Assembly: GCA_041653995.1 (NCBI GenBank)
Contig: JBAZEK010000001.1
Span: 1,030,613-1,094,612 of the forward strand
Direction: 5' to 3'
Length of the DNA: 64,000 bases
Source of the DNA: Dehalococcoidia bacterium
GTDB taxonomy: Bacteria; Chloroflexota; Dehalococcoidia; GIF9; UBA5629
Every line of letters starts with the position of its first letter. Position 1 is the first letter of the stretch. Shown here piece by piece: positions 61 through 33,117 of the stretch. The notes below the pieces were generated by a model. It saw only the letters and a list, made by a program, of their open reading frames with translations, made no database searches and was not told where the DNA came from. The position numbers were made by a program, and so were the translations under genes.

Positions 61-876
61 ATGGATACTTCGACTGACGAGCTGTTATTCGAGTGTGACA
101 ACGGGATTGGGGTTATCACTCTCAACCGGCCGGAAAGGAGAAATGCGATCACCTCAACGATGGGTGAAAGCTTTGTTAAAGTATTGGAACAGGCCAGAAA
201 AAGGGATGATATCAAGGTACTGATCATCACTGGCAGCGGCGAAGGCTTCTGCGCCGGCGCCGATGCTGCCAGCCGTCTCAAAGAACGGATAGGAGACGGC
301 GGTTACAAAGCGCTGGAGAAATCCCGCTCGGAGCTTCTGGAACCCGGCATGATAGTAATGCCCCACGCGCTTATGGACCTCGGTAAACCCGTAATTGCCG
401 CTGTTAACGGTGTCGCTGCCGCCTCGGGCCTTTCTCTGGCGCTGTTGTGTGACTTTCGCATAGCTTCAGAAAAAGCCAGGTTTGTCGCTTCATGGGTAAG
501 GATAGGGTTGATGCCGGACGCAGGCGCAAGCTACTGGCTGCCAAGGATAGTGGGGGTTGATAATGCTCTGAAGCTATTTTATACTGGTGAAGCGATTGAT
601 GCGGCCGAGGCAAAGAGGATAAACCTTGTTACACAGGTTGTTCCGCATGAAGAGCTCATGAGTACAGCCATGGACTTTGCAGGCAAAATAGCCAGTATGC
701 CCTCGGTGTCGATTGAGTTGACCCACCGTACGGTTTACCGTTTATTCAACGAGGAGTTGGCGAGGCAGCTGTTTAATGAAAACCTGGCAATGAACATCTG
801 CTTTAACACGGAAGATTTCAGAGAAGGTACAAAGGCTTTTCTCGAGAAGCGAAAGCCCGTATTTAAAGGCATCTAG
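61..876 (+). CDS. enoyl-CoA hydratase/isomerase (crotonase) family protein
   Basis: 271-aa ORF with crotonase motifs (ITLNRPERRNA, GSGEGFCAGAD, AAVNGVAAASG, FREGTKAFLEKRKP). AGGAGG lies upstream of the ATG. Confidence 0.85.
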   Translation: MDTSTDELLFECDNGIGVITLNRPERRNAITSTMGESFVKVLEQARKRDDIKVLIITGSGEGFCAGADAASRLKERIGDGGYKALEKSRSELLEPGMIVMPHALMDLGKPVIAAVNGVAAASGLSLALLCDFRIASEKARFVASWVRIGLMPDAGASYWLPRIVGVDNALKLFYTGEAIDAAEAKRINLVTQVVPHEELMSTAMDFAGKIASMPSVSIELTHRTVYRLFNEELARQLFNENLAMNICFNTEDFREGTKAFLEKRKPVFKGI

Positions 877-906
877 TCAATCAAAGAATCTAGAAGGAGT
901 GCTACA

Positions 907-2271
907 GTGAAGAAAATCAGGATCGGGGCGGGTTCGGGTTACGCGCCTTCCAAGACGGGTGAAGCACTGAGGCTCGTGCTGGAAGGGAATTTAAATTACA
1001 TCTGCTTCGACCAGCTGGCCGAGCTAACCATGTCCATCATGTCCAAGAACCAGCAGAAGGATCCCTCCAAGGGTTACCTTACCCAGCACATCGACGGTAT
1101 GAAACAGGTACTGCCTGAAGCTCACAAGAGGGGCGTTAAAATCATCACCAACGGCGGTGGCGTCAATCCCGAGGCGGCGGCTGACCAGATACTCAAAATA
1201 GCCTCCGATAATAACATCAAAGGTTTGAAAGTTGCCGTGATCAAAGGCGACAATATAGCAGGCAGGATCGACGAGCTGCTCAAGAAAGGATGGAAGTTCA
1301 CCAACCTGGAGACAGGCGAGGACGATATCAGCCGGATAAAAGACAATATCCTGATCGCCAATGCTTACATCGGCTCCGACTCCATTGTCGAAGCACTGGA
1401 GGCCGGCGCTGACGTGGTTGTGGCTGGCAGATGTTCTGATAGCGCGCTTTTCGTTGCCCCAATGATGCACGAGTTCGGATGGAAGTTTGAAGACACATAC
1501 TGGCCACGCATAGGCGCTGCCATTACCATCGGCCACACGCTGGAATGCGCCGATTTCGTCACGGGAGTGGCCAGCCCGGTGTGGGAACATGTACCCAAGC
1601 CGAACGAGATCGTCTATCCGCTGGCCGAGGTATCCGAGGACGGGACGGCCATACTGGAGATGCCGTCATCGGGAGGCGGCCTGCTCAACGAATGGACCGT
1701 CAAAAGCCAGCTCGTTTACGAGGTGCATGATCCTAAAAACTATATTATGCCCGACGGCGTGGCCGATATGACGGCGGTAAAGGTGGAGGACCTGGGCAAC
1801 AACAGGGTGAAGCTGAGCAATATGACCGGCAAGCGCAGGCCGGACACCCTCAAGGTGATCATCGGGTATCCGGGTGGGTTCATAGCGGAGACCATGAACT
1901 ACATATCGGCGCCTAAAGCCCTGACCAAGGCCAGAAGAGTGGAGGAACTGGGCTGGAAGAACCTTACCAAATACGGCATGAAGCGCGAGGATGTGGACGT
2001 ACAGATCGATTACGTCGGCTTGAATTCGATACTCAAGTCCATAGTCCCCCTGCCGGACGAAGACAGTATCAACGAACTCTGCCTGCGTATAGCGGCCAGG
2101 GGTAAAAATCCTCTCGAGGCGGGCATGATAGCCGTGTCTTTCCTGGACATGTCGCCGGTTGGTTTCACTGTATCGGTCCCTTCCAAGCCGAGAAGCTATA
2201 TATCCCTGTGGCCGACGCTGATACCGCGCGAAGAAGTCCCAACGAGTTTTATTATGAAGAGGCTGGAATAA
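907..2271 (+). CDS. AtuA-like (DUF1446) family protein, large part
   Basis: 454-aa ORF with GTG start after GAAGGAG. N-terminus 'IRIGAGSGYA' and length resemble DUF1446/AtuA proteins. Assignment is from memory, not searched. Confidence 0.6.
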   Translation: MKKIRIGAGSGYAPSKTGEALRLVLEGNLNYICFDQLAELTMSIMSKNQQKDPSKGYLTQHIDGMKQVLPEAHKRGVKIITNGGGVNPEAAADQILKIASDNNIKGLKVAVIKGDNIAGRIDELLKKGWKFTNLETGEDDISRIKDNILIANAYIGSDSIVEALEAGADVVVAGRCSDSALFVAPMMHEFGWKFEDTYWPRIGAAITIGHTLECADFVTGVASPVWEHVPKPNEIVYPLAEVSEDGTAILEMPSSGGGLLNEWTVKSQLVYEVHDPKNYIMPDGVADMTAVKVEDLGNNRVKLSNMTGKRRPDTLKVIIGYPGGFIAETMNYISAPKALTKARRVEELGWKNLTKYGMKREDVDVQIDYVGLNSILKSIVPLPDEDSINELCLRIAARGKNPLEAGMIAVSFLDMSPVGFTVSVPSKPRSYISLWPTLIPREEVPTSFIMKRLE

Positions 2272-2273
2272 AA

Positions 2274-2624
2274 ATGAGCAAGAAAGTGTTGATTAAAGAG
2301 CTGGCCTATGTCCGCAGCGGCGATAAAGGCGATATCTCCAACGTGGGGATAATGGCGTTCAATAAAGAGAACTACGAGATCATTAAAAAGCAGGTTACGC
2401 CTCAGAAGGTCAAGGACCATTACAAAGAGCTGGTCAAAGGCGAAGTCAAGGTATACGAGATGCCCAATATCGACGCTCTGCAGGTGGTCATGTACAGAGC
2501 CCTGGGAGGCGGCGCTACCTCTACACTCAGGTTCGATGAGACGGGAAAAGCCATGTGCCTGGGCATGCTATTCATGCCGGTCGAGGTGCCGGACGGATTC
2601 AAGCCGGCCAAACCTCCCATGTAA
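2274..2624 (+). CDS. small AtuA C-terminal-like protein
   Basis: ATG at 2274, 3 nt after the upstream stop and in frame with track ORF 2208..2624. 'VRSGDKGDISNVG' resembles the ~100-aa C-terminal module that is fused in many AtuA proteins. Confidence 0.5.
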   Translation: MSKKVLIKELAYVRSGDKGDISNVGIMAFNKENYEIIKKQVTPQKVKDHYKELVKGEVKVYEMPNIDALQVVMYRALGGGATSTLRFDETGKAMCLGMLFMPVEVPDGFKPAKPPM

Positions 2625-2671
2625 AATGTGTTATAAAAGGTCCAGCGCTTTCGTGCCGGCCATTCCGACTG

Positions 2672-3040
2672 CTATACGCCAGCCAGCCACTCCAGCAATC
2701 CGAATACCAGAACGCAGGCGATAAAATCTATACAGATACCGAAGCCTATTGCCTTGGTCACGCCGCCCTTACGTTTAACGGCGAAAACGACCAATACTAT
2801 TATTGCTATTCCGACCAGCCCAAGAGCTATAACGAAAAATGTATTTGCCAGAACTGACACCCCCGCCATTCCGGTGGCATTGCCGAGCACTTGTGAAGCA
2901 ATAGCAAGCAGGAGCGCCAGACATGGTGGAATTATTGTTGCGGGTATAGCCAGTCTGGCGGGACCAACCAGTTTCTCTTTTGGCCGGATCACCCATGCAA
3001 GAACGATGGCAGCAATGGTCAGCGGGATGGTCAATAACAT
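2672..3040 (-). CDS. small integral membrane protein
   Basis: Internal ATG at 3040 preceded by GGAGGA. About 4 hydrophobic helices. Downstream of the XRE gene in the same orientation. Confidence 0.5.
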   Translation of the reverse strand: MLLTIPLTIAAIVLAWVIRPKEKLVGPARLAIPATIIPPCLALLLAIASQVLGNATGMAGVSVLANTFFVIALGLVGIAIIVLVVFAVKRKGGVTKAIGFGICIDFIACVLVFGLLEWLAGV

Positions 3041-3098
3041 AATGAATTCTCCTCCACTTTTTGGTTTTCTGTCAGAATGTAATTTAGCACGCCTTCCG

Positions 3099-3302
3099 CT
3101 ATCCCTCTTTATCATTCAGAATAAAGATATCTTCGATGGCAGCTCCCAGCGCGCGAGAAATTCCATAAGCCAGCTTGAGCGATGGATTATATTTGCCTTG
3201 CTCGAGAAAGATAATGGTCTCGCGCCGCACCCCCACCATCTCCGCCAGCTTCTCCTGGGTCAGGCCGAGGCGGGCGCGATATTCTTTCATCCTTGTTTTC
3301 AT
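3099..3302 (-). CDS. XRE-family helix-turn-helix transcriptional regulator (short, YozG-like)
   Basis: 67 aa with '[29 protein letters not shown]' HTH. 4-nt ATGA overlap with the upstream membrane ORF. Confidence 0.85.
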
Positions 3303-3919
3303 GACTGTTCAACGGCACTGAAACTTGCACATAATCCCTTGCTATAGATTACCAGGCATCCCAGCAGGCTTAATGCCAGCACCGCCGGCGCCACCAGCAG
3401 CCCGAGTATAAAGAAGAAAGCATCCTCGAAGCCGAACCAGACGCTGACCAGATTATGCAGGACGATGGCCAGCGCGATTGTGCTGAGACAGAGCCCGGCT
3501 GTAATCAGGCATATCCTGAGCCATCTTGCCGCTTTCTCACCCAGGCAGGGACGGACACGGTCATAGTAATAATAGCCGATGACATAGACGAAGCCCACGA
3601 CCACGAGTTGTCCGCTGATGATCAGCTCTTTGGGAGTATTCTTGAAGACATTGAACCTGAACAGCAATATCAGCACTATGCTGGCAATAAAGAAAAATAT
3701 TCCGGTCAGGCGCATTGCACCTGTGAGATTATCGCGAACCCGTTCATCGATGACGGGCATCCGGCCGTGACGGATGAGCGACCACAATTCACGATGCCCC
3801 AGCAGCAAAATACCGGCTATCAGCGCTATCACTACGTACAGGTTCTCTCTGGAAAGCATCAGCATCAATGCCAGCAAACTGACAGCGGCATAGGCTATTA
3901 GTATCCATCTTGCTTTCAC
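3299..3919 (-). CDS. multi-pass membrane protein (DUF2178-like partner of short XRE regulators)
   Basis: 206 aa with several TM helices, translationally coupled to the XRE gene. The paralogous pair at 23503..24129 has the same organisation. Confidence 0.55.
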
Positions 3920-4357
3920 CGCATTTCCTCCCTATGTTAGAAATATTTAACGTTAGATATATATAACATATCACGTTCAAAAAGACCTGTCAAGGATTCC
4001 CACAGAAGCATGATGCAATTAAGCGCAGGTCACTGAGAAGAGTTACTTCGAAAAGCGGAGAGGGTTGATGACAGTCCGAGATAATTTACGCTTTGGTGGG
4101 GCATTGTGGACAGTTCCCGAACTCCTGTTTGAGAGCAAAAAGCTTATTTCGGTGCTGCAGCAATTGCTCACTGAAGGCTAACATGACCTTGTTTCCTTCC
4201 CTCCGACAACCACTTGCTCCTCGCCGGGATAAAACCTTTTCGTTTTGCTAAGCAAGACGCTCGAGATTATAAAGGCAGACCACTGACAGAAATCAAACTT
4301 GACAATTTATACCGGAGAAAGCATCTTCAATGTAGATACTATTGAAGGAGGCTTGGA

Positions 4358-4600
4358 TTGAAAGCTCGTATACAGAAATGGGGAAATAGTCTTGCTTTGC
4401 GTATCCCCAAGTCTTTTGCTTCAGAAGCAGGTTTGCAAAGAGAAACCTCTATTGAAATTTCACTATCAGAGGGAAAGCTCATAATAACACCATTGGCTAA
4501 TCCGAAATTTACTCTTAAACAGCTATTGGCAAAGGTTAATAAAGAGAATTTGCATCATGAGACGGATACTGGCCCCGCCGCAGGTAACGAAGCATGGTAA
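4358..4600 (+). CDS. mazE: AbrB/SpoVT-fold antitoxin MazE
   Basis: 80 aa with 'IQKWGNSLALRIPKSFA' looped-hinge-helix motif. TTG start after GAAGGAGG. Overlaps the toxin ORF. Confidence 0.75.
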   Translation: MKARIQKWGNSLALRIPKSFASEAGLQRETSIEISLSEGKLIITPLANPKFTLKQLLAKVNKENLHHETDTGPAAGNEAW

Positions 4601-4940
4601 GCGCTTCACCTATATTCCAAGATGCGGAGACATAGTGTGGATAACCTTAAATCCTCAAGCAGGACATGAACAATCAGGACGCCGCCCCGCCCTGGTAGTT
4701 TCACCTGTTAGTTATAATGATAAGACAGGGTTGGCCGTCCTTTGTCCCATCAGCAGCATTGTCAAGGGCTACCCTTTCGAAGTACTACTTCCAGAAGGAT
4801 CACCAGTGGCGGGGGCAATCTTATCTGACCAGGTAAAAAGCATGGATTGGCGTATTAGAAATGCAGTACTATTATGCACACTGCCTGCCGGAAATATCTC
4901 TGAGGTGCTCTTAAAACTGAACACCTTGTTATCACACTAA
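4557..4940 (+). CDS. mazF: MazF/PemK-family endoribonuclease toxin
   Basis: 'YIPRCGDIVWITLNPQAGHEQSGRRPALVVS...LAVLCPISS' is typical of MazF/PemK. Start is uncertain: ATG 4557 overlaps mazE by 44 nt. Confidence 0.8.
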   Translation: MRRILAPPQVTKHGKRFTYIPRCGDIVWITLNPQAGHEQSGRRPALVVSPVSYNDKTGLAVLCPISSIVKGYPFEVLLPEGSPVAGAILSDQVKSMDWRIRNAVLLCTLPAGNISEVLLKLNTLLSH

Positions 4941-5137
4941 ACAAATGCAATAAGGTCGTAGCCGGGTTGCGACTTGGACTACTTTACGATACGGCCTAAC
5001 AACTCTATACCGTTCGCAATATGAGTGTACATGCATAATAAAGTCAGCTTTAAATTCTGACACGCCGGCTTGACTGTGCCTTAATTTTCCCTTAATATTT
5101 CGCTCAACCATGACGTGAGGTTTAGGAGGATTGAAAT

Positions 5138-7201
5138 ATGGTGACAATGCTGAGGCTCTGCATAGCCCTGATTATCATTATCGCATTGGTCCTGCCAGGA
5201 ACAGGTTGTATTAAATTGGGCAAACTGCCGGGAAAACAGGCCGCGGAAAATAAGACTGCAGCATCAGGCGTCACGGCCGGGGGAACTGCCGGACAGTCAG
5301 GATCACAGGCGCCGGACACGGCGGGCAATCAGCCCGGTCAGGGCGGACAACCGGGCGCCCAACCCTCCGGCCAGGAGGCACAGGTCATTACCGGCGGTGG
5401 TGGAGTTGCCGTTGCCAACTGGATCGGCACCTGGCAATGCGGCAACTTTAAAATGTATCTGAACCAGGCAGGTGACCGGGTAACTGGGTGGTACGAGTAC
5501 GAAAACAGCGACATCGAAGGCACTGCTACCGGCAACACTCTCACCGGTACCTGGACTGTATCAGGTGTTAAATATGGTTTTCAGATTGTTCAGTCCTCTG
5601 ACGGCAAATCCTTTTCCGGCCGTTATAACCAGGGAACTTCAAGCAATCAAGGTGGATCATGGTCATGCACAAGGATAAGCACGGCCATGCCCACTGCAAA
5701 ATCATCAGGAGAAAATTCCCAGGTAATCACCCAGGGAGGAGGCGTGGCCGTTGCCAACTGGATCGGCACCTGGCAGTGCGGCAACAATAAAATGTACTTG
5801 GACCAATCAGGAAATCAGGTGACCGGGTGGTTCGATTCTGAAAATAGCGATATTGAGGGCTTTGCCACAGGCAATACACTTGTGGGTACCTGGACCAAGG
5901 GCGGAGTCAAATATGATTTCCAACTGGATCAGTCGTCTGACGGTAAATCATTTGCCGGACATTTTCGCCAGGGATCATCAGGCGCATGGACGGGAGAATG
6001 GTTCTGTATACGCACCAGCAGCGCCAGACCTCCGGCGAAACCAGCCACATCATATCCCCCCTCAGCCATACAGACTGCAAGCTGGACAGGTACATGGGAA
6101 TGCAATAATTATAAAATGTACCTGACCCAGACAGGCAGCAAGGTGACCGGCTGGACTGAACTGGATAATGGTGACATCGAAGGCTATGCAACCGGTAACA
6201 CAATTGTCGGCACCTGGACACTCTCCGGAATTGAATATGATATTCAGCTAAACCAGTCATCCGACGGCAAATCCTTTACAGGCCATTACCGTCAGGGTTC
6301 ATCAGGCAATTGGGCAGGAAGCTGGCCCTGCACTTTTATAACCAACGCACAGCCTCTGCCAAAGTCCGCAGTTCGATCTCAGCCTGCACCGACAGCACCC
6401 CCCACAAGCTGGACCGGCACATGGCAGTGCGGCCAGAAACAAATATGGCTACTTCAGACGGGCAGCCAGGTCATTGGCTGGTATGATGAACAGAGCGGTG
6501 ATATTCAGGGCTATGTCACAGGAAATACACTGGTAGGAACCTGGGCGGACGCCTCGGGTGAAAAAGATATTCAGCTGTCCATGTCCGCAGACGGGAATGC
6601 TTTTTCGGGTCATTACCGCACCAGCCCTTCAGCAAGCTGGATCAGCCACTTCTCCTGCACGAAAAAAAGCGCGGAATTACCCGCACCCAAAGTAACATTT
6701 GATATACAGCCCGTAAGTATTACCAGGGGGATGTCCGCGCAGTTATCCTGGAGCACTATACTGGCTACTTCTGTAGATATTAAACCGGACATAGGTCCCT
6801 GTGGCGCTAATGGCAAAATAAATGTCAAGCCCGACGCAGACATCTCATATACATTGAGCGCGAGCAACCCATTTGGCGGATCTAAAGTAACAGTTCCCCT
6901 AAAGGTAACATCGCCGAACTGGAGCGGGGAATGGGACTGCGGAAGCTTTGGGCATATGATACTCACCCAATCCGGCAACCAGGTTAACGGAATATATACA
7001 TACCAGGGCGGTAAAATCAGTGGCTATGTTAACGGGAATAAGCTTGCAGGAACGTGGTCTGAGGACCCGACCCATAAAGCTCCTGATGATGCGGGTGGTT
7101 GCGAATTCACCCAGTCAGCAGATGGTCTTTCCTTTACCGGTTATTATGACTACGGGTTTTCAGGCGCCGTGAGTCCCTGGAACGGGAAAAGGATTAGATA
7201 G
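5138..7201 (+). CDS. secreted lipoprotein with five ~105-aa Trp/Cys-containing repeats plus one Ig-like domain
   Basis: 687 aa with lipobox 'LPGTGC'. Repeats start W(I/T/S)G(T/E)W(Q/E/D)C and end (W/F)xC. AGGAGG upstream of the ATG. Confidence 0.8.
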   Translation: MVTMLRLCIALIIIIALVLPGTGCIKLGKLPGKQAAENKTAASGVTAGGTAGQSGSQAPDTAGNQPGQGGQPGAQPSGQEAQVITGGGGVAVANWIGTWQCGNFKMYLNQAGDRVTGWYEYENSDIEGTATGNTLTGTWTVSGVKYGFQIVQSSDGKSFSGRYNQGTSSNQGGSWSCTRISTAMPTAKSSGENSQVITQGGGVAVANWIGTWQCGNNKMYLDQSGNQVTGWFDSENSDIEGFATGNTLVGTWTKGGVKYDFQLDQSSDGKSFAGHFRQGSSGAWTGEWFCIRTSSARPPAKPATSYPPSAIQTASWTGTWECNNYKMYLTQTGSKVTGWTELDNGDIEGYATGNTIVGTWTLSGIEYDIQLNQSSDGKSFTGHYRQGSSGNWAGSWPCTFITNAQPLPKSAVRSQPAPTAPPTSWTGTWQCGQKQIWLLQTGSQVIGWYDEQSGDIQGYVTGNTLVGTWADASGEKDIQLSMSADGNAFSGHYRTSPSASWISHFSCTKKSAELPAPKVTFDIQPVSITRGMSAQLSWSTILATSVDIKPDIGPCGANGKINVKPDADISYTLSASNPFGGSKVTVPLKVTSPNWSGEWDCGSFGHMILTQSGNQVNGIYTYQGGKISGYVNGNKLAGTWSEDPTHKAPDDAGGCEFTQSADGLSFTGYYDYGFSGAVSPWNGKRIR

Positions 7202-7331
7202 GAGCATTATTGGTTTATGGTAAGTATTTTGGCTTCTATATTTAGTGCCAAATAACCAATATCCCATTGAATACCAGTCCATGCTAAAAAGAGATAAGTG
7301 GTGGTAGTATTACCTGGGGGCAGGTCATTTT

Positions 7332-7407
7332 TGGTGGACCTGGGGAGATTCGAACTCCCGACCTCCTGAATGCAAATCAGGCGCTCTCCCAATTGAGCTA
7401 CAGGCCC
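7332..7407 (-). tRNA. tRNA-Ala (anticodon UGC), CCA encoded
   Basis: Reverse complement GGGCCTGTAGCTCAATTGGGAGAGCGCCTGATTTGCATTCAGGAGGTCGGGAGTTCGAATCTCCCCAGGTCCACCA folds as a cloverleaf. G3:U70 is present; anticodon loop is TTTGCAT. Confidence 0.9.
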
Positions 7408-7468
7408 GCAAGACTACATATTATACTAAATCCGCTTCTGTTTGCTAAACGCCAGTGCGGCGATATAG

Positions 7469-8026
7469 CTATTTCTTGCCTTTGGCTGGTTTAGATGGAC
7501 GCGGCTCCGGTGAGCCCATCCAGCGCTCGTAGTGCACGCGCTCCGGCTTGAACCTGTCCTCCATGCGCGGCCTCTCGTCCGGATAGCCTACGGAAACGAG
7601 GGCGATCGGCACTATCCTGGTCGGCATGTTGAGCAGTTTCCTCATACCGTTCATCCTTTCCACCACCGGATAGACGCCGACCCACACCGCCCCCAGTCCC
7701 AGATCATGTGCGGCCAGCAGGATGTTCTGCGTGGCCGCCGAGCAGTCCAGCACACCCCTGCCTCTGGTCAGCTCGAGGCCGCTGTCGTTACACACCAGTA
7801 TGGCAAGCGCGGCTTCCTTGAGCATATGCGCGTGCGGATGAAAGGTCGGCACCTGTACGAGCGTCTTGCGCTCGGTGATGACCACGAAATGCCACGGCTG
7901 CTCATTGGCTGCCGAAGGGGCTGCCATCCCGGCCCGCAGGAGTTGCTCGACAACTTCCGCCGGCACGCGGTTATCCGTATATTTCCTGATGCTTCTGCGC
8001 GTCATGATTGATTCAAATGTTTCCAT
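7469..8026 (-). CDS. nitroreductase family protein
   Basis: 185 aa with 'RRSIRKYTD...AAPSAANEQPWHFVV' FMN-nitroreductase N-terminal signature. Confidence 0.85.
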   Translation of the reverse strand: METFESIMTRRSIRKYTDNRVPAEVVEQLLRAGMAAPSAANEQPWHFVVITERKTLVQVPTFHPHAHMLKEAALAILVCNDSGLELTRGRGVLDCSAATQNILLAAHDLGLGAVWVGVYPVVERMNGMRKLLNMPTRIVPIALVSVGYPDERPRMEDRFKPERVHYERWMGSPEPRPSKPAKGKK

Positions 8027-8050
8027 CGGTTCACCTCGTAAGCGCCGGAT

Positions 8051-9532
8051 CTATATACGCCGCCTGACCCTGGCAATCCAGCGCCCGATTAAAACGATCA
8101 GTGTAATGACTACCGCCGCCAGAACATAAGGCCAGATCATCTCGTAAAGCGGTGTGGGCGGCGGTTGCCTGTATCCGGTTAAATTCACCTTGAGCCTGTT
8201 GTCCAGTCCGCCGGCTATATGGAAAGTAGTCGCAGTCCTCTTGCCTTCTTTCTCGACAACTATCTTATATGTGCCGTAGAAGCCGCGCATTCTGGCGATG
8301 CCGTCATCACCCGTGTACACATCGCCGCGCGACCACCATTTATCACGGATAAGAGTCAGCAGGCGGTTATAGGCCGGCTTTTTCGTCATATCCATCCGCA
8401 ACAGCCCGGCCGGCGCCCCCTGCCAGGCGCCACTATCCGACAGGTCCCACCAGGTTATGGCCTGCACGGACGGGTGGCTGAAGAGCAGTATGTAGAACTT
8501 CTCCGCGTAATCAGCCTGCTCGTTCTCGCCTGCAGGTGTGGACGGCCACTCGGACGGCTGCTCCTGGGACGATATGCCCGTCCTGGGCTTGCCGCTCAAC
8601 ACGGTCACTTCGGTGAAATGAATGGGGGCATCGAAATCCTTGAACCGCTCGCAGGTATCCCAGACTTGGTATAAAGGCCAGTTGCCGCGGTGCATATGCG
8701 ATTGTATGCCTATGGCATCGAATTTACCCTTCTGCCTGACGATCCCCTGGAGCAGATCGCTATAATCCTGGTCGGTGCGAAAATCGTTGATTATGAGCGT
8801 CGACGTCGGGCAGGCCGACCTGGCCCAGCCCAGCGCATCCGCGCAGACCGTCACAGGTGTACGCTGGGACATCCACTTGCCCACCCGGGTGCTCACCTGC
8901 GCGCTCATGGTCGGCTCATTCACAACATCCCAATAATCGATCGTTCCGCAGAATTCACCGGCAATCTCCTTGACCCGCTTCTCCTGCGCTTTTTGCATAT
9001 CATCGGGCCCGACGGGCGCCCAGCCGGGCACCGATTCAGCCCAGATCAGAGGATGTCCCTTTACCGTGATACCCCTTTTCTCACACCATTCCGCAACCAT
9101 CTCGAGCATAATGGCTGATGACTGGCCCTGCTGCTCTTCATAGCTATCCCAGTAAAAAGGCGCGGTGCCGTAATTGAAAAAAGCGCTCAATGCTTCAGCC
9201 CAGTCCTGGTTGACTGCGGTGGGCCCGTTCTCGGCCAGCGGCGCCAGGCCGGTTCCGAAAAGGAAGTCATGGCTCTGCTGCTCGTAGTATACGCGCGCGC
9301 CCCTCACAGGAACGTTGTTCTCGTCCAGCACCTGTATAACGCCATCCCCCTTGCGTATCTTCTCGATACGGTCGCCGGCGCTCTGCATAATGAACCACTC
9401 AAATATCCCATTGTAAGCCTGAATGATGACATTGCCCGCGCTGACCCCAGGCGCCTGGCAGGCCGCCGCAGGCACAAGCAAAGAGACAACCACAATGGTC
9501 AGCGTCGCTATATAAAAACATCTTCTGTTCAT
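8051..9532 (-). CDS. glycoside hydrolase family 10-like (xylanase-like), membrane anchored
   Basis: 'YWDVVNEP' (acid/base Glu) and 'IHFTEVTV' (nucleophile Glu) motifs. N-terminal signal/anchor from the internal Met 'MNRRCFYIATLTIVVV'. C-terminal TM helix. Confidence 0.55.
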   Translation of the reverse strand: MNRRCFYIATLTIVVVSLLVPAAACQAPGVSAGNVIIQAYNGIFEWFIMQSAGDRIEKIRKGDGVIQVLDENNVPVRGARVYYEQQSHDFLFGTGLAPLAENGPTAVNQDWAEALSAFFNYGTAPFYWDSYEEQQGQSSAIMLEMVAEWCEKRGITVKGHPLIWAESVPGWAPVGPDDMQKAQEKRVKEIAGEFCGTIDYWDVVNEPTMSAQVSTRVGKWMSQRTPVTVCADALGWARSACPTSTLIINDFRTDQDYSDLLQGIVRQKGKFDAIGIQSHMHRGNWPLYQVWDTCERFKDFDAPIHFTEVTVLSGKPRTGISSQEQPSEWPSTPAGENEQADYAEKFYILLFSHPSVQAITWWDLSDSGAWQGAPAGLLRMDMTKKPAYNRLLTLIRDKWWSRGDVYTGDDGIARMRGFYGTYKIVVEKEGKRTATTFHIAGGLDNRLKVNLTGYRQPPPTPLYEMIWPYVLAAVVITLIVLIGRWIARVRRRI

Positions 9533-9637
9533 TTCCAACCCTGTCAACGAAAATACTTTATCTATTTTAGCACAGCATCCAATCTGTCTATACCGGCCTG
9601 CAGCCGCGAATGCCATTAACCCGACCGATAGTATTTT

Positions 9638-9666
9638 TTGACTATTGTTATAAACATCAATATAAT
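9638..9666 (+). promoter_or_regulatory. sigma-70-type promoter TTGACT-17 nt-TATAAT
   Basis: TTGACT at 9638-9643, a 17-nt spacer, then TATAAT at 9661-9666, about 20 nt upstream of the ArsR-family ORF. Confidence 0.6.
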
Positions 9667-9684
9667 ATATGATAATATGAGTAT

Positions 9685-10050
9685 ATGGTAATATATTCAG
9701 GGAGTAATCATTTGGCTGAATTGAAATTGGACCGGGTCACGCTGTATGAGTTTCATGCTCAGTTCTGCAAGACGCTGGCTGACGCCAATCGTTTGCTGAT
9801 CATCGCAGAACTTGTCGGTGGAGAGAAGTCTGTGACCGATCTGGCGCACAATCTGGGCCTCGGTCAGTCCAATGTGTCGAAGCACCTGGCGCTGATGAGG
9901 GAGCGCGGACTGGTGGAAACCAGGCGTGACGGCGCGTCCATCTACTACTCACTGTCGGACCCCAGAATCTTTAAGGCTATTGAACTGCTGGTGCAGGTTC
10001 AAACCGAACAGGTTGCCAGAAGGCATAGCCTTGCGCAGCACAGCCGCTGA
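9685..10050 (+). CDS. ArsR/SmtB-family transcriptional regulator
   Basis: 'FCKTLADANRLLIIAELVGGEKSVTDLAHNLGLGQSNVSKHLALMRERGLV' winged-HTH signature. Confidence 0.85.
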   Translation: MVIYSGSNHLAELKLDRVTLYEFHAQFCKTLADANRLLIIAELVGGEKSVTDLAHNLGLGQSNVSKHLALMRERGLVETRRDGASIYYSLSDPRIFKAIELLVQVQTEQVARRHSLAQHSR

Positions 10051-10116
10051 CGCCGTACGGCGTAGTATCAGCTATGAACGTTGGATTTTAATCAAAAGTT
10101 AAGGAGGCTATTCGAA

Positions 10117-10596
10117 ATGGATAACCAGGCAGACGGGGTGACCATAATAGTAATGAGTGGCGACATGGATAAGATAATAGCTGCGTTCAATATCTCCATT
10201 GGCGCCGCAGCTCTGGGCAAAGAAGCTAATATGTTTTTCACATTCTGGGGCATCAAGGCCATTCAGAAGGGCAACCTGACCGGAGACAGTTTCTTCGGCA
10301 AGATGATGGGGCTTCTGAACCGCGGCGGCATTGATCGCATCGGCCCCTCCCGCTTCAACTTCTGGGGCATGGGGAAATGGATGTTCAACCAGATGATGAA
10401 AATGCATAAGATCACACCCATAGCCGAGCTGCGTCAAACCGCCATCGACCTGGGAGTCAAGCTTCTACCCTGCCAGATGAGTATGGAAGTAATGGAAATC
10501 AAAAAAGAGGATCTCATCGACGAGGCCCAGCCTGCCTGCGGTGTGGCCACCATGCTGGAAATGGCCTACCGCTCCAAGGCGACCCTCTTTATTTAA
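10117..10596 (+). CDS. DsrE/DsrF-like family protein
   Basis: ATG 10117 preceded by AAGGAGG. 'VTIIVMSGDMDKIIAAFNISIGAAALG...FFTFWG' resembles DsrE-family (DrsE_2) proteins. Sits beside TusA. Confidence 0.6.
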   Translation: MDNQADGVTIIVMSGDMDKIIAAFNISIGAAALGKEANMFFTFWGIKAIQKGNLTGDSFFGKMMGLLNRGGIDRIGPSRFNFWGMGKWMFNQMMKMHKITPIAELRQTAIDLGVKLLPCQMSMEVMEIKKEDLIDEAQPACGVATMLEMAYRSKATLFI

Positions 10597-10606
10597 GGAG
10601 CATATT

Positions 10607-11059
10607 ATGTCAGTAGAAAATGAAGTAGTAATGACGCTTAACCTGGAAGGTCTCCTCTGTCCCATCCCGGTAGTTAAAGTCAGCAAAGCAATGCAGGACC
10701 TTCCCGTCGGGGGCGTGCTGGAAGCGACGGCCACCGACCCGGGCGTGCTTGCCGACATCCCCGCCTGGGCGCGCACCACCGGCAACGAGGTCATCAAGAT
10801 CGAACGAGAAGGCAAGCTGGTCAAATTTCAGATCCGAAGATTGAAATATTATACCCGCCATGATCGATCTATCGTTGGCTGTTCTCCTGGTCTCGTTGGC
10901 CGTTGCCCTGGCAGGCGTGGCGGTATGGATTTACCAGCTCTTCTCCAGGCCGAGCGCGTGCGATCCATCGCCCGGCAAGGGTTCGGACAAGCTGGGAGTA
11001 CTGTATGCCTTTACACTTGGCATGCTGCCGTGGAAGAAGGAAAGCGCCGGCCTGCATAA
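10607..11059 (+). CDS. TusA/SirA-family sulfur carrier (domain in first ~80 aa; ORF lacks a nearby stop)
   Basis: 'LNLEGLLCPIPVVKVSKAM' CPxP motif with AAGGAG upstream. The frame continues 200 nt into the next gene with a Gly/Arg-rich tail. Confidence 0.65.
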   Translation: MSVENEVVMTLNLEGLLCPIPVVKVSKAMQDLPVGGVLEATATDPGVLADIPAWARTTGNEVIKIEREGKLVKFQIRRLKYYTRHDRSIVGCSPGLVGRCPGRRGGMDLPALLQAERVRSIARQGFGQAGSTVCLYTWHAAVEEGKRRPA

Positions 11060-11504
11060 AATAGTCTATCTAAGGGGTATCTGCTTTCACATCGGCATTT
11101 TCGCCGGTATAGTGGCGCTAATACTTAGTATCTTCGGCATAGCGGCCGGCAGCACGTTGAACCTGGTGCTGAGCATACTGATGTGGATCGGCGCCGTTGC
11201 AGGCGTTACAGCAATAATATCACGCGCAACCGAAGCCAACCTGAGGGGGATCAGCCGCCCCGACGATTACATCTCGCCCGCGTTGATCACGCTCTTTATG
11301 TCCATGGGCGCGCTGCACGCCATGAACCTCGTCGATACCGTGTATTTTTATGCTGCCGCCAGCGTGCTGTGCCTTTACCTCCCCTGGAGCAAGGTCCGGC
11401 ACTGCGTTTACTTCTTCTTCATGCGCGGTAAGATCGGCGCGATGATGGGCCATCGAGGTCTGCTGGGCACGACGCAACGACAGACGAGGAAAGGAACACC
11501 ATGA
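10860..11504 (+). CDS. NarI/HdrE/DsrM-like polytopic membrane protein
   Basis: 214 aa with 5-6 TM helices. Position immediately before an HdrD/DsrK-like gene, with a 4-nt ATGA overlap at 11501. Confidence 0.5.
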   Translation: MIDLSLAVLLVSLAVALAGVAVWIYQLFSRPSACDPSPGKGSDKLGVLYAFTLGMLPWKKESAGLHKIVYLRGICFHIGIFAGIVALILSIFGIAAGSTLNLVLSILMWIGAVAGVTAIISRATEANLRGISRPDDYISPALITLFMSMGALHAMNLVDTVYFYAAASVLCLYLPWSKVRHCVYFFFMRGKIGAMMGHRGLLGTTQRQTRKGTP

Positions 11505-12790
11505 GCGACAACGACACAGCCACATTAACACCGGCGAATCCGGCATCTACGGACGCCGATATGCTTGATAAGCAGCTGACCAGAGAGGTTGAAGCTGCGC
11601 TGGGCGGCTGCGTACGCTGCGGCCTCTGCGCCGAGTCCTGCCATTACTACTCCGCCCAGCCTCAACTTCAGAATATGCCCGTCTACCGGGGTGAGGCCGT
11701 GAGAAAATTTTTCCGCCAGGCCGGCAGCCGGGCGAAGGGATTATTTCATCGGCCTGCAAAGGCGAAAACCGATGTATCGTCCCTTGACACGCTGGCGGAT
11801 ATGGCCTTCGGCAAGTGCACCCTTTGCCGCCGCTGCACGGTGAACTGCCCTGTGGGAGTGGATACGGCGGCGCTCATGCGTACCGCACGCGCCATCGCCA
11901 CGGCCTCCGGCAAAGCGCCGGAGATACTGGTCCAGCTCGCCGATGCGGCCATCAGCCGCGGGGAGAACATGGAGCTCTTTCGCGATATGTTGCTGGACCG
12001 TTTCAAAGAGCTTGAGGTCGAGACACGCAACAAGATCAATGATCCCGCTTTTTCGATTCCCGTGGGTAAAAAAGGCGCCGATATGCTGTTCGTAGGCCTC
12101 TCGGGCGAGCACAGCATAGTGCCCCCCGCCATATTGTTTCATTACGCCGGGGCAAACTGGACACTCAGCCTGTTTGAGGCGTCCAATTATGGCTCATTCC
12201 TGGGCGACAGCGAGAGATCGAAAAAAATAGCTCAACGCATAATCGACGAAGCCGGAGACCTTGGTGTGAAAGAGGTTGTGATCGGCGAGTGCGGCCACGC
12301 ATATACGGTGCTGCGCTGGGAGGCGCCCAAGTGGTTCAAAAAAGCGCTGCCGTTTCGTGTCAGGAGCCTGATAGAGGTGCTGGCCGAGTGGATACAGAGC
12401 GGGCGGCTGATCCTCAATCCCGAGGCCAATCCCGATCCTGTCACATATCATGATTCCTGCAACCTGGGCCGCAACGGCGGCCTTCTGGAGGAGCCACGCG
12501 TTGTGCTGCGCGCTGCAGTCAAGGATTTCCGCGAGATGTACCCCAACAGGGAGGAAAGCTATTGCTGCGGAGGAGGCAGCGGCATGGTGGCCGTTTCCGA
12601 ATGGGAAGAACGGCGCATGCTGGCGGGCTTGCCTAAAGCCAGGCAGATCAAGGCCACCGGCGCTAAAATCGTTGTCGCTTCCTGCGACAACTGCCGTATC
12701 CAGCTTGGCGAGCTCAACGAGCGCTACAACCTGGGCATCAAAGTGACCGGCCTGGCCGACCTGGTTGTGAACGCCGTCGTCAAAAAATAG
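11501..12790 (+). CDS. HdrD/DsrK-like (Fe-S)-binding oxidoreductase with CCG domains
   Basis: Two ferredoxin-type motifs (CVRCGLCAESC, CTLCRRCTVNCP) and cysteine-rich CCG-type motifs (HDSCNLGR, YCCGGGSG, SCDNC). Confidence 0.75.
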   Translation: MSDNDTATLTPANPASTDADMLDKQLTREVEAALGGCVRCGLCAESCHYYSAQPQLQNMPVYRGEAVRKFFRQAGSRAKGLFHRPAKAKTDVSSLDTLADMAFGKCTLCRRCTVNCPVGVDTAALMRTARAIATASGKAPEILVQLADAAISRGENMELFRDMLLDRFKELEVETRNKINDPAFSIPVGKKGADMLFVGLSGEHSIVPPAILFHYAGANWTLSLFEASNYGSFLGDSERSKKIAQRIIDEAGDLGVKEVVIGECGHAYTVLRWEAPKWFKKALPFRVRSLIEVLAEWIQSGRLILNPEANPDPVTYHDSCNLGRNGGLLEEPRVVLRAAVKDFREMYPNREESYCCGGGSGMVAVSEWEERRMLAGLPKARQIKATGAKIVVASCDNCRIQLGELNERYNLGIKVTGLADLVVNAVVKK

Positions 12791-12834
12791 TTCCAGTGGG
12801 CCTTTTCTCTCCCTGCATTGCCGGCGCTTATTAG

Positions 12835-12920
12835 TCATTGCGAGGAACGTAGTGACGAAGCAATCCTGTACGTGATTGCGTATACACAAGATTGCCACGC
12901 TTCGCTCGCAATGACGAGGA
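12835..12920. repeat. REP-like palindromic intergenic element, copy 1
   Basis: 'tcattgcgaggaacgtagtgacgaagcaatc...gattgccacgcttcgctcgcaatga'. Terminal inverted repeat cattgcgag/ctcgcaatg and inner gcaatc/gattgc. Translates as the FARNDE-type pseudo-ORF. Confidence 0.7.
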
Positions 12921-12988
12921 GAGAAACGCTGGCAACGACGTCTCGGCAAATACACCTCTTAACAGCGCCGTATGTTATCATTTGAGAC

Positions 12989-13720
12989 GTGGAATCCATT
13001 CCCCTCCTCAAGTACCTTGTGGAAGCCGGAATCGGCGCCAGGCGCCAGGTAGTAGCCGCCATCAAGATCGGCCGCGTATCAGTCAACGGGAAGCAGGCCG
13101 AGAGCTATACCATGCCGGTCTATCCGCAGGCGGACAGGATCACCTTCGACGGTAAACCCGTCGCGTTCCACAGCCGTGCCAGAATCGTCCTTATGCTGCA
13201 CAAACCGCTGAACCTGCTGACTACCACTAGCGACGACCGCGGCAGGCAGACTGTGCTCGATATCCTCCCAGCCGAGTACCGCGGACTGGGCCTGTATCCT
13301 GTGGGAAGACTGGACCACGATACCACCGGGCTGCTACTTCTGACCAATGACGGCAACCTTACCTACCGCCTGACGCATCCCCGCTTCGAGCTGGGCAAGG
13401 AATACTTTGTGCACATAGAAGGTACGCTGAGCCGGCAGGAAAAAGAGCTGCTGGAAAAAGGCGTGATGCTGGACGACGGCATCACAGCGCCCGCCGGAGT
13501 GAAGGAGATCGGCTACGAGCCGCCCTACAATTACAGCATCACCATCCACGAAGGGCGCAACCGCCAGGTCAGGCGCATGTTCGCCCATCTCGGATATACC
13601 GTCAAATCCTTAAAACGTGTCAGGATGGGGAATCTCCGGCTGGGCGACCTGGCTGAAGGAAGCTTCAGAAGACTCTCTGCACAGGAGATCGCATCGGCCC
13701 TGCGCCAGCACAAACAATAG
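12989..13720 (+). CDS. pseudouridine synthase, RsuA/RluB family
   Basis: N-terminal S4 domain and catalytic 'GRLDHDTTGLLLLTNDG'. GTG start. Confidence 0.85.
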   Translation: MESIPLLKYLVEAGIGARRQVVAAIKIGRVSVNGKQAESYTMPVYPQADRITFDGKPVAFHSRARIVLMLHKPLNLLTTTSDDRGRQTVLDILPAEYRGLGLYPVGRLDHDTTGLLLLTNDGNLTYRLTHPRFELGKEYFVHIEGTLSRQEKELLEKGVMLDDGITAPAGVKEIGYEPPYNYSITIHEGRNRQVRRMFAHLGYTVKSLKRVRMGNLRLGDLAEGSFRRLSAQEIASALRQHKQ

Positions 13721-30966: not shown

Positions 30967-31005
30967 CAATCATTATCTTTGGCTTTGCCGCTCCCTTTGA
31001 CGCTC

Positions 31006-31029
31006 GCCCGCCCGGTTGCGGGCCGTTTT
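31006..31029 (+). terminator. possible intrinsic terminator
   Basis: gcccgc-ccggtt-gcgggc followed by cgTTTTg. Confidence 0.35.
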
Positions 31030-31038
31030 GATCTGGGT

Positions 31039-31275
31039 TTACATGATGTAGGGCGTGCGGCAGCATTTAAGTGCAACACGATGAGAACATATGGTGGGCG
31101 ATACTGGATTTGAACCAGTGACCCCCTGTGTGTAAGACAGGTAAAAACCTTTAATTGACTGGAGCTTATTGATAATCTCTAGGGAAGCCTTACGTTGTCC
31201 TGAAAGAATCATGCTCAAATAGCTTTTACTGATACCTAATTCTTTGGCTAATTGACTCTGTGTTAACTTTTTCAT
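31039..31275 (-). CDS. HTH protein = putative N-terminal fragment of the split integrase (Int-N)
   Basis: ATG 31275 abuts the xis-like stop. HTH 'LTQSQLAKELGISKSYLSMILSG'. Residues 49-61 are encoded by the att/tRNA copy and the last 17 aa by host flank. Confidence 0.6.
   Translation of the reverse strand: MKKLTQSQLAKELGISKSYLSMILSGQRKASLEIINKLQSIKGFYLSYTQGVTGSNPVSPTICSHRVALKCCRTPYIM
31092..31142. repeat. att site (distal copy): 3' 51 nt of tRNA-Val(UAC) without the 5' half
   Basis: 'tggtgggcgatactggatttgaaccagtgaccccctgtgtgtaagacaggt' is identical to 43144-43194. Confidence 0.95.
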
Positions 31276-31530
31276 TTATTTCACCCGCCTTTTTATATCC
31301 TTTAAGCCTGCGTTTCCAATTATCGGTAAATATTGGTACGACTTCTTCTGTCTTCCTTTTGCACTAAAGTTCCCCTGTGGTTTTCTCACAAAATGACAGT
31401 CTACCTCATCAATAAGCCATCTCCGTCCAATGTAGAGTGCATTAATCCGTCCCTCTGACAAAAGCTTACGAACCCGTCTCTCAGATATACCAAGCCTTTC
31501 TGCTGCCTGTGGAACCGTAAGTAGTTTCAT
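31276..31530 (-). CDS. excisionase-family DNA-binding protein (Xis-like)
   Basis: 'LLTVPQAAERLGISERRVRKLLSEGRINALYIGRRWLI' is the typical excisionase/MerR-type HTH_17 pattern. Confidence 0.7.
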   Translation of the reverse strand: MKLLTVPQAAERLGISERRVRKLLSEGRINALYIGRRWLIDEVDCHFVRKPQGNFSAKGRQKKSYQYLPIIGNAGLKDIKRRVK

Positions 31531-31706
31531 TCAATTACCTTCTATCATTTTAATATTATACCGTTATCGGAATAATGTCAAGTATAATTACAAGCTAAAA
31601 TATCTTTTCTTTTTGCCGCATTTTTCCATAATACTCCGCAGAATTTTTTCAAATCGTATTTAAATTAAGTTTTAAAAGTTCAAGAATGAGGGTTTATAAT
31701 ATGCAT

Positions 31707-31817
31707 ATAAACTGGAAGCATATGGAAGGAAGCACGATAGAAAGTTAGAACGTAAGCAAGCGAGTAAGCAAGAAGGAAAGCAGGCGAGCAGGGAAGCTAT
31801 GTTGCTTTCCTTTTTTT
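31707..31817 (+). ncRNA. candidate ~110-nt purine-rich small RNA or leader ending in an intrinsic terminator
   Basis: TATAAT at 31695-31700. Five GGA motifs. 8-bp stem ggaaagca/tgctttcc (31775-82 / 31803-10) followed by T7. Confidence 0.3.
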
Positions 31818-31841
31818 AATTTTTTGATTCGGAGGTACGAA

Positions 31842-32057
31842 ATGACTGAAAACAAGGTCAAGGAAATTAGATTGAGCAAATGCATGAATCAGAGAGAACT
31901 GGCAGAGAGAGCTCATATCTGTCAAACAGCTATTTCAGACATTGAAAGGGGGGTAAGACTACCATGGAAAGCAGCGTCTGAAAAGCTTGCTATTGCATTG
32001 GGTGTCACAATCGAGGAATTATTCCCAAACAATCTTAGGGGAGGTAAAAATTGCTAA
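31842..32057 (+). CDS. Cro/CI-type XRE HTH regulator
   Basis: ATG 31842 after GGAGG. 'MNQRELAERAHICQTAISDIERGVRLP'. Divergent from xis-int. Confidence 0.75.
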   Translation: MTENKVKEIRLSKCMNQRELAERAHICQTAISDIERGVRLPWKAASEKLAIALGVTIEELFPNNLRGGKNC

Positions 32058-32398: not shown

Positions 32399-32579
32399 AG
32401 TAGTGCAGCACCCGTTTTAGTAGTTGGAGGTGCTGTGTAAAAATGGTATTAGACAGAAGGAAAAGGCTGATGGAGGAGGGTATGACTCGCCATGATATTT
32501 CAGGAGCCTACTTATTTAATCAATTCAAGTGAGTTGTAATAGATGGTCATACCTATTCGATGGTCTTAAGGAGGAAAAT

Positions 32580-33026: not shown

Positions 33027-33117
33027 ATCCATTATATATATCAATATGATTATTACTACAAACATCAATATTTATTTCTTTTACTTTTACTTTTCCTTAT
33101 GCCCCTTTTTTATTTTT

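Follow-up and report, generated by a model that had tools for sequence, protein, structure and literature searches.

A five-gene operon of Dehalococcoidia that sets two sulfur carriers beside a DsrK-like subunit and a putative mono-haem membrane anchor

The complex DsrMK acts on cysteine-bound sulfur held by a small carrier protein, DsrC, and its cytoplasmic iron-sulfur (Fe-S) subunit, DsrK, has one complete CCG motif. In the HdrDE of methanogens, the HdrD subunit carries the complete CCG motif twice, and HdrE binds two haems. EtfD (homologue of Rv0338c, PDB 9OJN), an ETF:menaquinone oxidoreductase, is one fused chain of 1042 amino acids: its single b haem, bound by His78 and His241, lies near the Fe-S chain on the cytoplasmic side, at 4-5 Å from menaquinone (PMC13083937). 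Sulfur carriers, too, are found next to CCG enzymes: in the dsrE3A-dsrE2B-tusA arrangement that accompanies sHdr in Metallosphaera, Aquifex and Hyphomicrobium, the genes of DsrE2B and TusA adjoin that of an HdrB-like CCG enzyme (PMC4175335; PMC11094781). Finally, a cluster of Bacillus licheniformis headed by the gene of a CstR-like repressor, yrkD, with a dsrE-like gene, yrkE, and a tusA-like gene, yrkI, protects against sulfane sulfur (PMC9918477). In this paper we compare with these systems a compact operon, or cassette, found in a stretch of 64,000 nucleotides from a Dehalococcoidia bacterium (GenBank assembly GCA_041653995.1, contig JBAZEK010000001.1, positions 1,030,613 to 1,094,612), called the window below. 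It encodes a repressor of the ArsR/SmtB family, a DsrE2B-type protein, TusA, a membrane anchor and a DsrK-like Fe-S subunit.

The five-gene, repressor-controlled operon is real, and its products probably form a redox module that depends on sulfur carriers and is linked to quinones. That the module serves to handle reactive sulfur is slightly favoured over all other roles together; that it runs in the reductive direction is a more tentative proposal. The features of the locus are collected in Table 1. All five genes follow the promoter in the same orientation with gaps of 66, 10 and 10 nucleotides, and the last two, those of the membrane protein and of the Fe-S subunit, overlap in an ATGA. The initial annotation of this DNA had described a near-perfect promoter in front of five tightly packed, co-oriented genes, and this description stands. 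Sites that match at least 11 of the 12 consensus positions occur six times in all on the two strands of the window, the operon promoter being one of them. A sigma-70-like promoter of the same quality is found at the same relative place, 5' of the regulator gene, in eight related loci, mostly labelled Dehalococcoidia, and it is thus more than a chance match. The neighbours of the operon in the window are unrelated to it: a GH10 glycosidase gene upstream, on the opposite strand, and the genes of a pseudouridine synthase and a short-chain dehydrogenase downstream.

Table 1. Features of the cassette locus, in window coordinates (aa, amino acids; nt, nucleotides)
Feature	Position	Strand	Basis or remark
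Sigma-70-type promoter, TTGACT-17 nt-TATAAT	9638..9666	+	11/12 consensus positions matched
Candidate operator, imperfect inverted repeat AATATATGATAATAT-N4-ATATGGTAATATATT	9664..9697	.	arms 12/15 complementary
ArsR/SmtB-family repressor	9712..10050 (TTG start; open reading frame extends to ATG 9685)	+	HTH_5, NF033788
DsrE2B-type sulfur-carrier candidate (DrsE_2), 159 aa, Cys119	10117..10596	+	PF13686, E=6e-40
TusA sulfur carrier, 80 aa expected, active-site Cys18 in LLCPIP	10607..10849	+	PF01206, E=4e-19
Five-helix NarI-fold membrane anchor, 214 aa, probable cytochrome b, one predicted bis-His haem	10860..11504	+	
DsrK-like cytoplasmic Fe-S subunit, 429 aa	11501..12790	+	Pfam CCG + Fer4_8
Long nested hairpin, possible end-of-operon or REP-like element	12834..12915	+	inverted repeats, 44 nt past last stop

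The strongest evidence for a common function comes from the way these genes stay together. Relatives of the Fe-S subunit were sought in one genome per species, and were found in at least 591 genomes, a count that includes a sister system without DsrE and TusA, described below. Linkage was evaluated on a sample of 49 fetched loci in which the Fe-S protein is at least 50% identical and at least 2 kb of upstream DNA is at hand. The membrane gene and the TusA gene are present in all 49 loci, the DsrE gene in 47 and a regulator gene in 46, all upstream and co-oriented; the flanking genes vary from locus to locus, and the four structural genes stay together. The initial annotation had named the absence of any conserved link to DsrE and TusA as an outcome that would speak against its sulfur-relay reading: the link is instead close to absolute. 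The same annotation held that the unit stands without the rest of the Dsr and sHdr systems, and this is borne out for the flanks: among the loci with Pfam-annotated flanks, no Dsr, sHdr, sulfide:quinone oxidoreductase (SQR) or persulfide dioxygenase (PDO) gene lies within 6-8 kb, and neither there nor beside the window operon did we find dsrC, dsrAB or dsrJOP.

By their record labels, the hosts of the cassette belong to Anaerolineae, Dehalococcoidia, Thermoflexus, Chloroflexia, other Chloroflexota, Kryptoniota, metagenome-assembled genomes labelled Bacteroidota, Armatimonadota, Aminicenantia and Neomarinimicrobiota; at least one carrier, Thermoflexus hugenholtzii, is cultured. Some variation is seen around the DsrE gene, which is placed downstream of the Fe-S gene in loci L057 and L062, and which encodes a much more divergent protein, with about 31-33% identity, in loci L017, L019, L022, L047 and L053-L055, some of them of Anaerolineae type. 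Beyond these loci we meet the sister clade, in Acidobacteriota, Gemmatimonadota, Desulfobacterota and Zixibacteria: its Fe-S protein has about 590 amino acids, is 38-47% identical, and keeps the membrane partner without DsrE or TusA. Four sister loci from Acidobacteriota and Zixibacteria were read in detail (L068, L080, L084 and L086, around positions 4200-9700): in these, a macro-domain gene and one for an Rrf2-like regulator precede the pair, and genes for a PAS sensor kinase and a response regulator follow it. Judged by its genes, the sister clade represents a separate system and delimits the cassette. A literature search found no account of the cassette as a unit; its coverage was incomplete, and an earlier mention elsewhere is possible.

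The DsrE gene, behind the ribosome-binding sequence AAGGAGG, encodes a protein that scores 137 bits against PF13686, for a cut-off of 25. Its nearest structure is 2QS7, or SSO1126 (E=3e-17, with the cysteines aligned), the protein that is named DsrE2B and that provides the prototype structure of this type (PMC4175335). Cys119 is kept in 50 of 50 homologues, and score, likeness to the prototype and cysteine together make the protein a DsrE2B-type member of DrsE_2. The Allochromatium type, DsrE2, was rejected: the protein scores 62.5 bits where NF047629 of NCBIfam asks for 210, it has only 159 amino acids, and no hydrophobic N-terminal segment is visible by eye. TusA is placed in its family by 68.7 bits against PF01206 (gathering cut-off 28.6) and by its Cys-Pro-x-Pro motif, whose Cys18 is found in 51 of 51 homologues. 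It reaches neither of two NCBIfam equivalogs, with 38 bits for TusA, where 78 are required, and 41 for YedF, where 79 are required. By eye, none of DsrE, TusA and the Fe-S protein shows a signal or Tat motif. With these scores, and those of the regulator given below, the ArsR/SmtB, DsrE-family and TusA (CPxP) identities of the initial annotation are confirmed.

One detail of the TusA gene needs an explanation. In the window, the codon at positions 10847-10849, where its stop should be, is TAT, and the open reading frame runs on to 11059, overlapping the membrane gene by 200 nucleotides. The genes of relatives end in AAA TAG or AAA TAA, where the window has AAA TAT. The same strain has been assembled independently twice (ENA and Logan); both assemblies have G instead of T at position 10849, which is their sole difference from the window over 3201 nucleotides, and both yield a TusA of 80 amino acids. 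The lost stop probably reflects an error in the consensus, or else a very recent mutation. A programmed frameshift, recoding, or a fusion of TusA to the membrane protein can be ruled out, since relatives stop at TAG or TAA and the same-strain assemblies differ at this position only.

We now turn to the enzyme itself. Among the named families of NCBIfam, the Fe-S subunit is best matched by DsrK, with 260 bits (E=3e-77, residues 27-428), followed by TmcB with 236 and HmcF with 226. The latter two identities were rejected, both scores being under the curated cut-offs; DsrK, all the same the best named family, has an equivalog cut-off of 400 bits (NF045796) that is not reached either. The motifs are those of DsrK: there are two CX2CX2CX3C motifs, C37/40/43/47 and C106/109/112/116, and one complete CCG motif, the second, formed by C320, C355-C356 and C395-x2-C398. 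In 40 homologues, the cysteines of the cubane clusters and of the CCG motif show little or no variation. The first CCG domain is degenerate, with an invariant C264-G-H266-A and no other cysteine in about residues 190-260, so that the protein does not have the two complete motifs of HdrD.

A Foldseek search with the Fe-S subunit ranks first the EtfD of Mycobacterium smegmatis (TM 0.69, over the whole soluble subunit), then LutA (TMq 0.41) and HdrB (TMt ~0.6); EtfD is also the sole sequence match in the PDB, with 62 bits. The CGHA motif aligns with C581-P-H583-C584 of EtfD, the position of C584 being occupied here by alanine. In EtfD, a linear [3Fe-4S] cluster has C581 and C584 among its ligands, and the non-cubane cluster is completed by His583 (PMC13083937). 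The CCG site of the cassette protein should, judging from its homology to HdrB and EtfD, hold a non-cubane [4Fe-4S] cluster. Since the other ligands of the linear cluster are missing, the lone invariant Cys264 should sit beside this non-cubane cluster, and the alignment with EtfD thus suggests a possible active site made of a cluster and a thiol.

The membrane protein is harder to place. It has no Pfam match at E<=0.01, Nitrate_red_gam included, and a sequence search of the PDB returned nothing; its only family matches are TmcC, with 29.6 bits for a cut-off of 240, and HmcE, with 26.7 for 275, and both identities were rejected on these scores. The fold search alone succeeded: the protein has the five-helix fold of NarI and EtfD. 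The assignments that the initial annotation made for the five proteins hold, except that the membrane protein is recognized as NarI-like by its fold and by no Pfam model. The family is small, with 515 clusters among 1.84 billion representatives, and one of its members is a fusion of 670 amino acids with the Fe-S part. By sequence, it is a Pfam-less membrane protein family, separate from DsrM.

The di-haem proteins DsrM, HdrE and NarI have four histidines, two on helix 2 and two on helix 5. In the cassette family, His77 and His181 are present in 71 of 71 sequences and His66 in 64; the fourth NarI-type position, 198, is Arg in 49 of the 71 and His in 14, and the outer half of helix 5 has no histidine. 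With only three near-invariant histidines, and given that EtfD binds one b haem by a pair of histidines, the anchor is most likely mono-haem, as EtfD, and not di-haem, as NarI, DsrM and HdrE. The assignment of histidines to the haem comes from sequence topology and from the analogy with EtfD and NarI, and the invariant pair of the anchor resembles His78/His241 of EtfD. The positive-inside rule puts the conserved loops of the anchor on the cytoplasmic side. Of the likeness to HdrE (DsrM) and HdrD (DsrK) that had first been proposed for the two subunits, the DsrK part is thus retained, while a di-haem anchor and an HdrD type with two CCG motifs are not.

The regulator gene is annotated by both NCBI and JGI at 112 amino acids, the exact same protein, with the TTG at 9712 as start codon behind a GGGAG ribosome-binding site. 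Its product matches HTH_5 (E=6e-11) and NF033788 (87 bits), and it has the winged-helix fold of the SqrR and BigR repressors: its nearest solved relatives are these two persulfide sensors, SqrR (6O8K, E=1e-16) and BigR (3PQJ, E=6e-13). The cysteines with which they sense, Cys41 and Cys107 in SqrR and Cys42 and Cys108 in BigR, are absent: the position of Cys41 of SqrR is an alanine, and there is no C-terminal cysteine. The sole cysteine of the protein, Cys28 in the numbering of the 121-residue form, is kept in 38 of 40 homologues and aligns with Leu29 of SqrR. The classical metal sites, CxC in helix alpha-3 and Asp/His/Glu in helix alpha-5, are absent as well, and no histidine is conserved outside the DNA-binding helix. 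The name BigR was tried and rejected: the protein has 64.7 bits where the equivalog requires 155. Among the families tried for the proteins of the operon, the NCBIfam family TsoR was also rejected on a score below the curated cut-off; we could not trace its name to any publication.

The candidate operator overlaps the -10 box at its 3' end and stops short of the ribosome-binding site of the regulator. Alone, this inverted repeat is a weak candidate, the region being AT-rich. At the same site, many related loci have different but clear palindromes: examples are TCTCCGGTTATCCTGT-TA-ACCGGATAACCGGAGA in Thermoflexus and ATGCTTATGCG-N6-CGCATAAGCAT in locus L019. This placement would fit an operon with an autoregulated repressor. 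The regulator itself changes with the lineage: over the cassette loci, we count 39 ArsR, six MerR with a Cys-rich tail, one divergently transcribed CsoR-like regulator and, in another locus, a two-component system. The MerR-family regulators, of 150 amino acids, replace ArsR 5' of the DsrE gene in the loci labelled Kryptoniota and Bacteroidota (L001, L015, L018, L059, L065 and L066); their C-terminal tail, with about ten cysteines and no Pfam match, may be a redox or Fe-S sensing module. The CsoR-like regulator, from a locus of Armatimonadota (L005), has Cys47 and Cys76, and a glycine instead of a histidine at the copper-ligand position, two cysteines without the histidine being what we take to be the pattern of the persulfide sensor CstR. 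Different as they are, the ArsR, MerR and CsoR-like regulators all come from families that include thiol-based sensors, which we count for a role in sulfur chemistry.

The strict linkage of two cysteine carriers to a DsrK-like/cytochrome b pair thus most likely points to a redox exchange in which the quinone pool is one partner and sulfane sulfur bound to the carriers the other, and the thiol-type regulators, together with the lack of any other conserved partner, point to the same function. It is natural to sketch how such a module could work. TusA, by Cys18, and the DsrE2B-type protein, by Cys119, would take up sulfane sulfur in the cytoplasm as persulfides, and the two might also join as a carrier-carrier di- or trisulfide. 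The loaded carriers would be offered to the cytoplasmic DsrK-like subunit and processed at the CCG site (C320/C355/C356/C395/C398, probably with His266), beside the lone Cys264; the two cubane [4Fe-4S] clusters would connect this site to the single b haem, held by His77 and His181 near a quinone site. Menaquinol would then reduce the carrier-bound persulfide or trisulfide to thiols and H2S, and reactive sulfur species could be removed without O2. The ArsR protein, bound to the palindrome that lies after the -10 box and before the ribosome-binding site of its gene, would be released when its single conserved cysteine is modified, and the operon would be induced. An inducible module of this kind, with menaquinol driving the reduction, is the best explanation overall, and has about an even chance of being right. 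The reductive direction is favoured by its parallel with the action of DsrMK on the trisulfide of DsrC, and it would suit hosts that have no O2-dependent persulfide dioxygenase.

Several points weigh against this proposal. The transfer of electrons from menaquinol (about -74 mV) to a persulfide is uphill under standard conditions, and thermodynamics favours the opposite direction; a haem on the cytoplasmic side offers no obvious energy coupling. EtfD, the closest solved relative, sends its electrons towards the quinone. Both sensing cysteines of SqrR and BigR are missing from the ArsR protein, so that it is at most a candidate persulfide sensor. We found no biochemical or expression data on any member of the cassette. 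In vitro, the archaeal DsrE2B of Metallosphaera was inert to every sulfur compound tried, and did not bind TusA (PMC4175335). Finally, the His-completed non-cubane cluster of EtfD is described as non-catalytic (PMC13083937), and the same histidine, His266, is invariant here, so that the site could serve electron transfer alone.

The main rival keeps the carriers and the quinone and reverses the flow: sulfide, or the thiols and persulfides of the carriers, would feed the quinone pool, for instance by H2S + TusA-SH -> TusA-SSH, or by formation of a trisulfide between TusA and DsrE, as proposed for DsrMK in sulfur oxidizers. The cassette would then be an analogue of sulfide:quinone oxidoreductase, without flavin and with a protein as acceptor, or a membrane counterpart of the soluble sHdr. 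The oxidation of thiols or sulfide by menaquinone is exergonic, which counts in favour of this reversal, as does the example of EtfD, whose single cytoplasm-side haem passes electrons to menaquinone. In sulfur oxidizers, moreover, the genes of DsrE2B and TusA adjoin CCG-domain Hdr-like genes (PMC4175335; PMC11094781), and the carriers of the cassette include aerobes or microaerophiles, such as Thermoflexus and Armatimonadota. However, additional persulfide would be an odd output for a repressor circuit of the stress type, the flanks examined show no PDO, Sox, Dsr, sHdr or SoeABC genes, and many hosts are labelled with anaerobic lineages (Dehalococcoidia, Anaerolineae). We consider the oxidative direction rather unlikely, and we retain the menaquinol-driven reduction.

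A second rival changes the substrate and makes the cassette a stress module for metals or metalloids such as selenium, tellurium or copper: what the carriers bind would be selenium, or else an adduct of a thiol and a metalloid (a selenotrisulfide, for example), which the DsrK-like enzyme would then reduce. ArsR/SmtB, MerR and CsoR are the classical families of metal sensors, and a selenotrisulfide resembles the trisulfide of DsrC. The copper part has a local basis in the Armatimonadota locus, where, in positions 319-4310, the cassette adjoins a copper-type cluster: a second CsoR, a P-type ATPase, an HMA protein and a thioredoxin-like protein. Yet the ArsR protein has neither the alpha-3 CxC nor the alpha-5 metal site, and the CsoR-like regulator lacks the copper-ligand histidine. 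For selenium, the NCBIfam model that TusA matches best is that of YedF, whose label refers to selenium metabolism, but the 41 bits obtained are under the cut-off of 79, and YedE, SelD and metal-efflux genes are not conserved beside the cassette in annotated flanks. A role in metal or metalloid stress is improbable for the cassette.

It could also be conjectured that the pair is an EtfD-like quinone reductase with a donor other than sulfur, TusA and DsrE being co-transcribed for some unrelated task, for example the thiolation of cofactors or the upkeep of Fe-S clusters. EtfD is indeed the closest solved structure for both subunits, and the histidine that makes its non-cubane cluster non-catalytic is invariant here. 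But the Fe-S subunit has 260 bits to DsrK against 62 to EtfD, and the ligands of the linear [3Fe-4S] cluster are absent except for one cysteine. Neither etfAB nor any other donor gene is linked in the flanks examined, and an incidental co-transcription would have to explain a linkage of 49/49 for TusA and 47/49 for DsrE across phyla with unrelated flanks, all of which makes a non-sulfur donor very improbable. The last candidate, the Fe-S subunit of a dehydrogenase for glycolate, lactate or glycerol-3-phosphate (of GlcF/LutA/GlpC type) together with a membrane anchor, a kinship that would have undone the initial annotation, has the CCG fold in common, and LutA in second place of the Foldseek ranking, but is rejected as next to impossible by profile scores of 52 bits for GlpC (cut-off 278), 31 for GlcF (333) and 25 for LutB (445) against those of DsrK, and by the absence of glpAB, glcDE and lutBC neighbours in the annotated flanks and in the window.

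A few features of the window remain to be described. No intrinsic terminator with a U-tract was found 3' of the operon. The hairpin that follows its last gene folds as RNA with -34.3 kcal/mol (z=-4.07); the motif of its arm, TCGCAATGAC, is seen again at position 16962, and the hairpin may be a REP-like repeat acting at the end of the operon. An Rfam scan of positions 9000-13500 gave a single sub-threshold chance match and nothing else. The initial annotation had pointed out a rhodanese lipoprotein 9 kb from the operon. It exists, at positions 21535/21559-22032, with a PF00581 match and a lipobox LSGC (within VLSGC); the lipobox makes it extracytoplasmic, and therefore unable to hand sulfur over directly to the cytoplasmic TusA. 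As no rhodanese is conserved near the cassette in the flanks examined, a functional link between the two is ruled out. Farther away, a low-GC island covers about 31000-43100, with about 35% GC where the surroundings have about 54%, and looks like an integrated mobile element: it contains a gene resembling those of tyrosine integrases (42317-43081, reverse strand), and it abuts a cluster of tRNA genes (Val, Arg, Leu, Val) at 43144-43470. Several TlpA/thioredoxin-like lipoproteins, judged by eye, are encoded in the island.

It may be that the cassette represents an unrecognized enzyme class, although we hold this only as a tentative possibility: a TusA/DsrE2B-persulfide (or trisulfide):menaquinone oxidoreductase, a pared-down relative of DsrMK and independent of DsrC. 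Such an enzyme would have an anchor that is mono-haem and EtfD-like, and an active site in which a cluster works together with Cys264, and it would reduce or oxidize sulfane sulfur without O2 under the control of a new, single-Cys ArsR subclass as sensor. The disposal of reactive sulfur in anaerobes that have no persulfide dioxygenase is poorly understood, as are DsrK-like enzymes outside dissimilatory sulfite metabolism. If the proposal is true, Chloroflexota, Kryptoniota and other mostly uncultured lineages gain an O2-independent membrane route for reactive sulfane sulfur. The cassette is compact and self-contained, and it is found in abundant, poorly characterized lineages (Anaerolineae, Dehalococcoidia, Thermoflexus, Kryptoniota). 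It would offer a minimal two-subunit model, with defined protein substrates, for the sulfur chemistry of CCG clusters, and could help to clear up how, and in which direction, DsrMK works, which is still debated. Its anchor draws attention to a membrane family that Pfam does not model, and its regulator to an ArsR subclass that would sense by a different cysteine; the cultured Thermoflexus hugenholtzii makes the idea testable.

We close with the comparison to the systems introduced at the beginning. As in the CstR clusters, the cstAB-sqr cluster of S. aureus and yrkD-yrkJ of Bacillus, a thiol-based repressor would head DsrE-like and TusA-like genes (PMC9918477); these clusters dispose of sulfur oxidatively, by a persulfide dioxygenase and SQR, and depend on O2, whereas the only enzyme of the cassette is the DsrK-like/cytochrome b pair. 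The sHdr system is soluble and has many subunits (HdrAB1B2C1C2) as well as lipoate-binding proteins; the cassette is anchored in the membrane, has two subunits, and contains no LbpA, HdrA or DsrE3 genes. With HdrDE it would share a b-type cytochrome anchor and a CCG Fe-S subunit, which in methanogens act on a disulfide with electrons from a quinone-like membrane carrier; unlike HdrDE, the cassette has a single complete CCG motif and, probably, a single haem, in bacterial hosts without the CoM/CoB context. The likeness to DsrMK is closer: both combine an anchor of NarI fold, a probable cytochrome b in the cassette, with a cytoplasmic protein in which two ferredoxin-type clusters are joined by one complete CCG motif at the C-terminal end. 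The differences lie in the carriers, which are TusA and DsrE2B instead of DsrC, with no dsrC, dsrAB or dsrJOP in the flanks examined, and in the anchor, which has three invariant or near-invariant histidines where the di-haem DsrM has four, and which forms its separate small family. EtfD matches the overall fold, and also the single haem bound by one pair of histidines that is predicted for the cassette. What is one fused chain in EtfD is encoded here by two genes, its four cysteine ligands of the linear [3Fe-4S] cluster are reduced to C264, the equivalent of C581, and its partner is ETF, where the genes linked to the cassette are those of TusA and DsrE, with no ETF genes in the flanks examined. 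By analogy, then, the module would work like DsrMK and HdrDE, and be built like a split EtfD.

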